Positions 49,993 to 51,874 of a stretch of DNA of 64,000 nt are shown piece after piece. Below the pieces are notes generated by a model. The model saw only the letters and a list, made by a program, of their open reading frames with translations. It was not told the DNA's origin and did not search any database. The position numbers and the translations under genes were made by a program. Every line of letters begins with the position of its first letter. Within the stretch, counting starts at the first letter, position 1. The DNA is from Patescibacteria group bacterium. Its GTDB lineage: Bacteria; Patescibacteriota; Patescibacteriia; Patescibacteriales; UBA12465. Location: positions 43,621-107,620 of the forward strand of contig JBAZJV010000002.1 in the NCBI GenBank assembly GCA_041651095.1. The letters are read 5' to 3'.

Positions 49993-50030
49993 AAAAAAGC
50001 TCCGGAACGCGCTGTGGACACGCTCCGGAG
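49993..50030 (-). terminator. Rho-independent terminator after the T9SS-tail gene
   Basis: The minus strand reads ctccggagcgtgtccacagcgcgttccggag followed by cttttttat. Confidence 0.65.
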
Positions 50031-50068
50031 TACTTAGGGACGGACCTGATCATTAGACCAGGACCTTT

Positions 50069-51874
50069 TTACTTTATTAGAATCATTTTCTTTGTTTGTA
50101 CGAATTCGCCGGCATTTAATCGGTAAATGTAAGTACCGCTCGCCAGCTGAGCACCGTTGAAATCAACCGTATAAACGCCTGCTGCTTTTTGTTCATTAAC
50201 CAAAGTCATTACATCTCTGCCAAGAATGTCGTAAACTTTTAAAGTTACCGATCCGGACTGGGGGATGCTATAGCTAATAGAGGTAGTCGGATTAAACGGA
50301 TTGGGATAATTCTGTGCGAGGCTGAACGTTTTTGATAATTCGGTTTTACCTTCGACGCCAGTTACCTGTCCCGGAAGACTGACCGCTTCAACTTTATACT
50401 TTAACCTGCCATCCGGGACGGTAAATAAAATTTTTCCGTTGCTTACTGTGGCTGCCTTACTCCATAATTTCCCTGATGGGAGCATGGCCGATATCCTGAC
50501 CGCATAAGCCTTGGTGCTGATGTTTATCATATCACCGGTTTGCGTCGTGGTATAGCCTACCGGCACCGGTCTGGTACGCTGGGACATTAACTGCCCAATA
50601 CCTAAACCGCTAACGAGTGGATCGTCGGGGTGATTCAGCCACACACGTAAGAGGAATAAATCACATAAAGTTGAACCGTCAAATAGAATAGCGGTCTTAC
50701 CGAGATTATAGCCGACCCTGGTATATTGATATTCTTCCCCAATATAACCGAGACTCGTATATAATTTCTGTAATTCATCTACATCATCCATTAATACCGC
50801 CCCGTCTCCGTTAAAGTCACCCAAAACTCCATCAACTGACTTTATCGCTCGACTATAGTCTGCATATTGCGATAATGGCACTGACATAAATGGGCTATAA
50901 AGCACCGCTTCGTTGGAGAAATAGATATAGGAACTCGCACCGACTGGCAGAGAGTTGTGCCCGGACAGCCAACTGAAATTGAAATACTCTATGCCACCGC
51001 TTGTAGAATTGACTGTCCAATCAATTATCTGACTGGTATTAGTCACCGCCATGGTCACGTGACCGCGACTTTTTAAATCATCAGTCCAGGGAGCAGAAAG
51101 GCTAAAGTCGCCGCCGGTTAGATCTTGACCAATATTGGTGCTGGTCCTGAAACCAACAATGCAATTCGGTAAATAATTGGCTGGATTTAAATCACAATAC
51201 CCGGAAGAAAAGAAATACTCACCGGGCAGAACGTACAAGGTATCGGCAGTCAAGCCATTGCCGCCACGTGGATAAATCTGCAGCTTAAGCCGCAGATGAT
51301 CAGTATTGGCTAGCACCAAATTATTTCCAAACAATCCGTTATTCCAATCCGGTTCGTAATGCAGCACTTTACTCTCTTTAGCAGCAATGTCAGTTACGGC
51401 CAAATCTGTTAATGAAACATTAAATGTGCCCCAGCCATACAAATCTGCCCGTAGATTGATGACCACTGAGGTATGTTTGGCGATGACTAGCGGATTCGGA
51501 AAGTAAAAACCAATATTACGACTAGCGACATTAAGAGACCATGAATTGACTACACCGAGCCGCACATCATTATACAAAGCTTGAATGTTATGCATTTCCA
51601 GCTGAGCATCTTCGTATGGACTATAAATGCCAAAGACCATGCCAGCGACTAAGATGTCGTGACTAGACTGATTGTCTACCCTAACCGCATAGCAGCTAAT
51701 ATCGGATAAAACTTGCTTATCATTCGCCACCAAATTAGCACTGGGGGCTGATTGGTCTAAAGTTGCATAAACTGAATCCAAGGCAGTAACCGGATTCGTG
51801 GTCTGAGCTAGGGACAACGAACTGATACTGATAACGAACAACAAAAACCAGAAAAACATGGACATTTTTTTCAT
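50069..51874 (-). CDS. Secreted protein with a T9SS-type (Por_Secre_tail) C-terminal sorting domain and one dockerin/EF-hand-like loop
   Basis: 601 aa with a signal peptide ([25 protein letters not shown]). The C-terminal region reads [85 protein letters not shown]. It also has [17 protein letters not shown]. GC is clearly lower than in the flanks. Confidence 0.75.
   Translation of the reverse strand: [601 protein letters not shown]

Follow-up and report, generated by a model that had tools for sequence, protein, structure and literature searches.

A T9SS type A sorting domain as the most constrained part of a protein family named in Patescibacteria

The DNA considered here, called the window, is a stretch of 64,000 nucleotides from a Patescibacteria group bacterium (contig JBAZJV010000002.1). 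One of its genes, X, encodes a protein ending in the type A C-terminal domain of type IX secretion systems (T9SS), which is usually held to be diagnostic of type IX secretion and of the diderms of the Fibrobacteres-Chlorobi-Bacteroidetes (FCB) group. As judged from sequence comparison, this tail marks a conserved family that so far has been named only in the Candidate Phyla Radiation (CPR). Within that family, the protein is most constrained at the tail, which is indistinguishable from functional FCB tails. It is modestly probable that the tail acts independently of type IX secretion, as an anchoring or binding module of an adhesin-like surface protein. The domain match itself is already in databases, where PGAP labels such proteins T9SS type A. 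Among 8 million full texts, no relevant work joins T9SS or Por_Secre_tail with Patescibacteria or the CPR, the few co-mentions being incidental.

The sorting tail of X

A textbook Por_Secre_tail had been recognized at the C-terminus of X in the sequence-only reading of this DNA, and profile searches confirm it. On residues 523-598, TIGR04183 from NCBIfam gives 49.4 bits (E=3.3e-13, cut-off 23) and Por_Secre_tail PF18962 from Pfam 39.5 bits (E=7e-10, gathering cut-off 27), the match lying at the extreme C-terminus, 3 residues short of the stop codon. The related beta-sandwich families FlgD_ig (PF13860) and CHU_C type B (PF13585), both overlapping residues 538-591, stay below the threshold of 27 with 19.4 and 16.9, the type A model being clearly the best on X. 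The protein is listed at NCBI as 'T9SS type A sorting domain-containing protein [Patescibacteria group bacterium]'. No second tail-bearing open reading frame (ORF) is found in the 64 kb when the tail hidden Markov model (HMM) is run against the six-frame ORFs.

Regarding its layout, X has the C-terminal domain placed after a flexible linker and a Sec signal, read by eye, at the N-terminus. In the orthologues, AQA/QT stands at the position of signal peptide cleavage (alignment A1), and no lipobox cysteine is read from the signal peptide sequence of X. The order of Sec signal, functional domains, linker and Ig-like tail of ~80 aa is the same as in the type A cargo of FCB bacteria, such as Ignavibacteria proteins and the gingipains of P. 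gingivalis. Likewise, X scores above the curated cut-offs, and its tail consensus cannot be told from that of Ignavibacteria and Bacteroidota. Unlike FCB cargo, it is encoded in Patescibacteria with no T9SS component seen, its tail is the most conserved part, and its passenger is a core without a Pfam family, found only in the CPR wherever the organism is named.

A core-plus-tail family within the CPR

A profile of all of X N-terminal to the tail (A2, with the window protein as first sequence), run against 1.84 billion representative proteins, recovers 89 clusters at E<=1e-3 and 68 at E<=1e-10. Together with profile A3, it defines the family, which is unnamed. Most members have ~400-430 aa and match positions ~200-500, here called the core, which comprises the beta-sandwich D2, a dockerin-like insert and the beta-sandwich D3 (Table 1); few are full-length. 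The signature of the family, which X fits, is DTLYVLPGE ... IDGIRGDVNGDG ... GxNxGRGxILF ... WLNDPNDPLVxxLGIG ... D3, followed by the type A tail. The core is without any Pfam family, and the same tail is found by a narrow tail HMM at the end of 65 of the 89 clusters. When ten further members were tested, five reached TIGR04183 with a Bacteroidia-like flavour ('GIYIVKI...K') and five had no recognizable tail.

All six clusters with an organism name belong to Patescibacteria. The named members are PIZ98460.1 and MFW0862056.1 from Komeilibacteria, the latter on an 860-kb contig, PIR95599.1 and its relatives from Falkowbacteria, which occur in 37 of the collection's blocks, and another protein labelled 'Patescibacteria group' besides that of the window. 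The gene is not an isolated acquisition from an FCB donor, as the core-plus-tail family is present in several Patescibacteria lineages.

Wherever the organism is named, the family gene stands alone among housekeeping genes. In Falkowbacteria, it lies between ATP synthase-BacA and GroES-GroEL, and in Komeilibacteria next to PPDK-pyruvate kinase-Wzy. The subgroup with the Bacteroidia-like tail (L088, L091, L092 and L093; 510-549 aa) is syntenic, with RuvC-glycogen synthase-GH57-APH-(CsaB pyruvyl transferase)-FtsK on one side and Mur ligase-rpoB (1103 aa) on the other. A word-index search with the core profile gives 11 proteins of a single subgroup.

As a separate observation, the Falkowbacteria homologue (L085 14398-15772) lies 3 kb from a diversity-generating retroelement with bAvd and a reverse transcriptase. 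No template/variable repeat pair of that element is found in L085 9000-17500 at the settings used, and the tail-bearing gene is probably not its target.

Constraint on the tail and its likeness to FCB tails

The mean pairwise identity among eight orthologues is 41% in D1, 47% in D2, 50% in the linker, 55% in D3, 59% in the dockerin-like insert and 72% in the tail. In codon alignments of four orthologues, synonymous sites are at or near saturation over the whole gene (proportion of synonymous differences, pS, ~0.75-0.87). As the synonymous rate (dS) is saturated, dN/dS is not computable, and the ranks of the non-synonymous rate (dN) were used instead. The lowest dN is in the tail for five of the six orthologue pairs, with 0.19-0.28 compared to 0.39-0.70 in D1. 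Saturated synonymous sites together with the lowest dN indicate that the conservation of the tail is due to purifying selection and not to recent conversion. Consequently, the suggestion that the tail might be inert in a host lacking T9SS does not hold, as it is the most constrained region by both measures.

To compare both groups, 55 family tails were set against 166 tails from Ignavibacteria and Bacteroidota loci and other database matches. In this comparison, for which the FCB tails had been chosen beforehand by their similarity to the query, the window tail reaches 65.6% identity with FCB tails and 64-68% with its own orthologues, and the mean identity is 47.5% within the family and 46.7% between family and FCB. 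The two consensus sequences have the same residue, at a frequency of at least 60%, in 39 of 90 columns and disagree in one. When the CPR tail profile is searched, the named matches are solely Ignavibacteria and Bacteroidota (E ~1e-37), the result being dominated by short FCB fragments. A scan of genome contigs with tail motifs retrieves mostly Ignavibacteria, Melioribacter and metagenome-assembled genomes of other Bacteroidota/FCB, at 37-62% identity confined to the tail; a few of the matching records bear odd labels.

One record is L056 (OY969565.1, 1080270-1097371), a 1.34-Mb 'chromosome' labelled uncultured Actinomycetota with two Ignavibacteria-style tail proteins (5639-7105 and 11270-12484). 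Both genes lie in low-GC, Bacteroidota-looking surroundings that include KatG, OxyR and a phosphatase of the SpoIIE type, and either label or assembly may be in error.

Residency of the gene and replacement of its allele

Seven full-length homologues of X, all tail-bearing, are found in a large protein database at 45-53% identity. Three of them (L001, L003 and L004) occupy the same slot, with clpP, divergent X and then secD-secF-Wzy/TPR-prepilin peptidase-ftsA-ftsZ-nrdR-nrdD, on contigs of 7.7 to 610 kb from different samples, the longest being L001; a fourth is flanked by an HU gene and by adk/recA. Compared with these relatives, the window proteins are 93-95% identical for FtsZ, FtsA and ClpP, 81-84% for SecD and SecF and 46-53% for X, and the nearby envelope and surface proteins (Wzy, the 1123-aa, 330-aa and TSP3 proteins) are 47-61% identical. 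X reads, from these identities, as a resident and fast-evolving surface protein, because it diverges at the pace of the other surface proteins. No flanking repeats or mobile-element scars are found at X.

A chimeric join at the borders of the gene, as well as contamination, was considered and rejected, because independent assemblies share the order of clpP, X and secD; the initial reading had asked that a chimeric assembly be excluded. Recent direct import from FCB bacteria was rejected too, as every full-length homologue falls in the family that is syntenic and CPR-named, and matches in FCB bacteria extend over the tail alone.

As had been stated beforehand, the gene is lower in GC than secD and clpP: X has GC 0.44 and GC at third codon positions (GC3) 0.445, compared to GC3 0.67-0.74 in secD, secF and clpP. 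Genes of the window fall into a native class (GC3 0.54-0.79, most genes, nearly all at least 0.58), an intermediate class of 0.39-0.48 (X, two PEP-utilizer genes, ORF 26109-26384 and a pfkB gene with its small neighbour) and a low class of 0.21-0.36 (an island with Gabija and type IIG restriction genes and one with a Panacea antitoxin). The neighbours of X are near saturation relative to L001 (pS 0.71-0.82) and have GC3 0.65-0.77 here versus 0.46-0.55 there; in L001 and L003, the X orthologue has a GC3 near that of its neighbours. The copy in the window is probably younger than the locus, the resident allele having been replaced from a lower-GC relative through the clpP and secD flanks. The donor is most likely another lower-GC Patescibacterium, because no full-length homologue was found outside the family and the named members are all CPR. 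Horizontal acquisition, deemed likely at first, thus fails as a lone import from an FCB donor, since syntenic orthologues exist, and is more probably a later allele replacement, for which GC3 argues.

Structure of the protein and its calcium-type loop

With a 50-sequence family alignment, the AlphaFold model of X has a mean predicted local distance difference test (pLDDT) score of 90.3 and a predicted TM score (pTM) of 0.71; with eight sequences, pLDDT was 63 and the fold search gave generic matches only. The model has a signal helix (residues 2-18), D1 and D2 with the bounds of Table 1, three helices (~362-414) with the conserved loop, and D3 (441-499). The tail is an Ig-like sandwich of six DSSP strands (residues 530-599, pLDDT 83-94).

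Foldseek against the PDB retrieves only Ig-like chains, namely the archaeal S-layer protein csg (7ptp), PrgB (8beg), integrin legs, complement MG domains and Gram-positive pilins and adhesins, at 6-12% identity and TM 0.04-0.24. On this model, the predicted architecture is that of an adhesin or S-layer protein and not of an enzyme. The best structural matches are the multi-Ig surface proteins of monoderms (PrgB, AgI/II, MSCRAMM and pilins, as well as csg), which have the same chain of beta-sandwiches and are Sec-exported. The likeness is at the fold level only and, unlike them, X has no LPXTG motif or hydrophobic C-terminal segment noted by eye, and no wall-binding domain is reported by Pfam. 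Among viral structures, the best fold match is BFVD A0A6J5M064, a 636-aa protein of an uncultured Caudovirales described in UniProt as 'Secretion system C-terminal sorting domain'.

Outside the tail, the best family motif is IDGIRGDVNGDGxVxxxDV, which, when the core profile is searched against the PDB, corresponds to individual repeats of type I dockerins (4fl4_A, E=1.4e-6), one query segment (profile positions 142-167) aligning to both repeats of solved dockerins. This confirms the single dockerin/EF-hand-like loop noticed from the letters. A true dockerin module was rejected, as there is a single repeat and no Pfam Dockerin_1 match on X at E<=1. The loop shares with type I dockerins (PF00404) the 22-residue loop plus helix GDxNGDGxVxxxDxxxLxxY; unlike these duplicated and terminal pairs, X has one repeat embedded between beta-sandwiches and is not known to have a cohesin partner. 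The loop is a predicted calcium site of the dockerin/EF-hand type.

The envelope of the producer

X, FtsZ, SecD, ClpP and NrdD of the window are all assigned at NCBI to 'Patescibacteria group bacterium' by exact sequence match, on a 172.8-kb contig. A Pfam scan of 40 window ORFs reveals PBP2, DD-carboxypeptidase, FtsEX, DivIC, the NrdD activase, a VirD4-like coupling protein, bacterial TSP3 repeats and giant TIG/Big_5 surface proteins, overall a typical CPR picture. SecDF, prepilin peptidase A24, FtsA/FtsZ, NrdR/NrdD and ClpP are named through L001 orthology and NCBI, and two short ORFs (26109-26384 and 27339-27629) are without annotation.

No T9SS or outer-membrane family appears among the 40 ORFs in the Pfam scan, and nothing like SprA, PorK/L/M/N, PorV, PorU, BamA, TonB or lipopolysaccharide synthesis among the annotated window ORFs; nor do the records of the other related loci considered (~140 kb) list any such family. 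Within the window, the CPR-like context without signs of an outer membrane or T9SS described from the sequence is borne out. The absence of T9SS holds for ~200 kb of CPR sequence and is beyond that expected from published surveys of CPR envelopes. These propose that there is no outer membrane, as TonB-ExbBD and PilQ are absent and a Gram-negative envelope is not seen by microscopy (PMC6744442). In addition, the type IV secretion system (T4SS) of the CPR is of the monoderm class (10.1101/2025.01.22.634366), and T9SS is reported to be a specific feature of the FCB superphylum (PMC12398890).

Two further observations concern the cell surface. At 34845-36800, among housekeeping genes and with no adjoining T4SS gene, there is a coupling ATPase of the VirD4/TrwB kind whose C-terminus has a treble-clef zinc finger. 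Two adjacent genes for giant surface proteins of 1123 aa and at least 1801 aa (55223-63992), the second of which may exceed the end of the window, encode Ig-like domains of the He_PIG, TIG and Big_5 families, and their place upstream of clpP is conserved in relatives; the L001 orthologue has a weak T4SS_pilin match.

Possible roles of the tail

The preferred explanation, to which a modest probability was given above, is that of a T9SS-independent anchoring or binding module. X would be exported by Sec and its signal peptide cleaved, the protein then being already outside a cell without a second membrane. With the outer membrane proposed to be absent and no T9SS in sight, the tail is taken not to be an outer-membrane translocation signal in the producer. 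The core-plus-tail architecture, or at least the tail, would have been captured long ago from T9SS-bearing FCB bacteria and then inherited and exchanged within CPR lineages, with purifying selection keeping the tail as a module for binding or anchoring at the end of the protein. Most likely, the tail would attach the protein to a surface so that D1-D3 and the calcium site point outward, and this surface would be the wall or S-layer of the producer or a partner cell. The tail is taken as the surface-holding part because no other anchor signal is noted and because it is the only family-wide terminal module.

Several points weigh against this explanation. The location, processing and ligand of the protein rest on inference, and the residues conserved in the tail may serve structure alone, as conservation by itself is no proof of binding. 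The core can exist without the tail, as in P0092, P0101, P0103, P0110 and P0122, which keep the core with no TIGR04183 match and end in a different C-terminal segment of ~60 aa ('...GLRIIQMSDGATKTTIFNRHR'), one of the five being named Patescibacteria group; in these clusters, the tail may have been replaced or have diverged past recognition. Most of the 89 clusters are metagenomic and without an organism name, so FCB-encoded members are possible, and the Bacteroidia-flavoured subgroup between FtsK and Mur ligase has no taxon assignment. Across the four genomic contexts, no wall-anchoring partner gene is conserved beside X, and the protein would therefore act alone or with machinery encoded elsewhere. 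Finally, the absence of T9SS covers the ~200 kb of CPR sequence given above, of which 64 kb belong to the genome itself.

The tail could instead be a passive relic, captured from FCB bacteria and kept merely as a stable Ig-like fold for folding or spacing, with no specific partner. It is an Ig-like beta-sandwich like the other domains, with a sub-threshold FlgD_ig score; a phage protein with the same domain tops the viral fold search, which places the fold outside cellular cargo, and some family members have no recognizable tail. However, a spacer is not expected to be the most conserved region, nor to keep 39 T9SS-consensus positions after synonymous saturation, and this alternative is considered unlikely. 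Rated slightly lower, as rather unlikely, is a role in trans, where an extracellular adhesin bears a host-type tail and is captured by PorV, PorU or PorZ on the surface of an Ignavibacteria or Bacteroidota partner; the capture might even ligate the protein to the surface lipopolysaccharide of the partner, tethering both cells. PorU and PorZ are surface-anchored, PorU recognizing and cleaving tails there (PMC8545088), and PorV is the outer-membrane shuttle of tail-bearing cargo (PMC5562754). Moreover, CPR bacteria are thought to be episymbionts with enriched gene families for cell-cell interaction (PMC6744442). Such mimicry would agree with the lack of drift from the FCB consensus despite a long residence in the CPR (the 65.6% versus 64-68% above) and of a CPR-specific signature, with named best matches of the tail profile that are all Ignavibacteria or Bacteroidota, and with one core bearing two flavours of tail, Ignavibacteria-type and Bacteroidia-type, as if matched to the partner. 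Nevertheless, it is wholly inferential, and T9SS cargo reaches PorV via the translocon and not from outside; the FCB tails behind these comparisons had been chosen for resembling the query, and the Bacteroidia-flavoured subgroup is without a taxon.

The tail and its preceding flexible linker are strongly conserved, and no other anchoring signal (LPXTG, lipobox cysteine or C-terminal hydrophobic segment) is noted by eye, which would also fit a cryptic sorting pathway, in which machinery of the CPR itself reads the tail and attaches the cargo to the wall or S-layer, in parallel to PorU or sortase. This is quite improbable, as a single cargo family bears the tail in the CPR loci inspected, and no neighbouring gene is common to the four genomic contexts. 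Least of all is X expected to be ordinary T9SS cargo, either on mis-binned or chimeric FCB DNA or in a diderm with a T9SS, which is regarded as very improbable. By sequence the tail is a perfect T9SS signal, and 64 kb of the genome itself were examined; the synteny largely refutes this view, as the flanking clpP and secDF are 81-94% identical to their counterparts on related CPR contigs of 19-610 kb, where the gene order is the same. The family also occurs on an 860-kb Komeilibacteria contig and many Falkowbacteria contigs, no mobile-element scars lie beside X, and CPR surveys propose no outer membrane (PMC6744442).

Features of the gene and the rest of the window

The features of X and its flanks are collected in Table 1; among them is the gene's own terminator, also predicted from the sequence and recovered here.

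Table 1. Position of X, its domains and its flanking elements in the window
Feature	Position	Strand	Remarks
X, tail-bearing coding sequence, 601 aa, monocistronic	50069..51874	-	ORF list; NCBI MFA5155079.1
Putative Sec signal peptide, aa 1-24 (MKK, hydrophobic stretch, SLA/QT)	51803..51874	-	by-eye reading and alignment A1
D1, N-terminal beta-sandwich, aa 30-190	51305..51787	-	model and alignment; full-length subfamily only
D2, beta-sandwich, aa 191-330	50885..51304	-	start of family-wide core; DTLYVLPGE motif
Helical insert, aa 331-435	50570..50884	-	dockerin-type repeat and conserved WLNxPxDPLVxxLGIG
Single dockerin/EF-hand-type loop, predicted calcium-binding, aa 353-364	50783..50818	-	within family motif IDGIRGDVNGDGxV
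D3, small beta-sandwich, aa 436-500	50375..50569	-	before linker in all family members
Flexible linker, aa 501-522	50309..50374	-	residues 506-514 with pLDDT <50
T9SS type A C-terminal domain, aa 523-601	50072..50308	-	Ignavibacteria flavour: LKVYDILG ... SGTYIYRL ... KKMILIK
Intrinsic terminator: 13-bp stem (8 GC pairs), 5-nt loop, T run	50000..50030	-	
AT-rich divergent promoter region, GC ~0.23-0.26, ~180 bp, common to X and clpP	51875..52055		
Ribosome-binding site AGGAG, 6 nt before the ATG of X	51885..51881	-	
secD, downstream neighbour of X	48278..49849	-	81-83% identity to L001 and L003 orthologues
clpP, divergent upstream neighbour of X	52056..52640	+	94% identity to orthologues

Elsewhere in the window, the region 3114-10580 has GC 0.28-0.33 and GC3 0.21-0.28, compared to ~0.55 and 0.6-0.79 around it. 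This region is a defence island that the CPR genome imported recently. Besides a complete Gabija pair, with GajA at 6401-8005 (PADLOC E=1.8e-208) and GajB at 5374-6456 (E=5e-114), it contains three unknown ORFs and, at 8256-10580, a type IIG restriction-methylase to which a specificity domain is fused (E=1.7e-166). A second low-GC island (24205-25953, GC3 0.30-0.36) has a helix-turn-helix and SocA/Panacea antitoxin-domain protein at 25189-25953, followed by two unknown ORFs (24813-25196 and 24205-24813) that may be the cognate toxin or toxins. At 18873-22178 and 27339-28660, with GC3 0.39-0.46, there are two PEP-utilizer mobile domain proteins and the pfkB sugar kinase with its small neighbour. 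In composition, the genome resembles a mosaic, with imported DNA of two or more ages.

Implications

If the preferred explanation is true, the domain functions independently of outer-membrane translocation in the producer, in a family that spans several Patescibacteria candidate phyla. Tail matches in genome bins thus call for caution before a T9SS or contamination is inferred from them. Should host mimicry be true instead, the flavour of the tail would be a predictor of the host, readable from sequence, for uncultured CPR bacteria, whose host identification is a long-standing problem; the taxon of the Bacteroidia-flavoured subgroup would decide whether the flavour changes within the CPR. X is in this way a candidate molecular interface of CPR cells with their own envelope or with T9SS-bearing partners.

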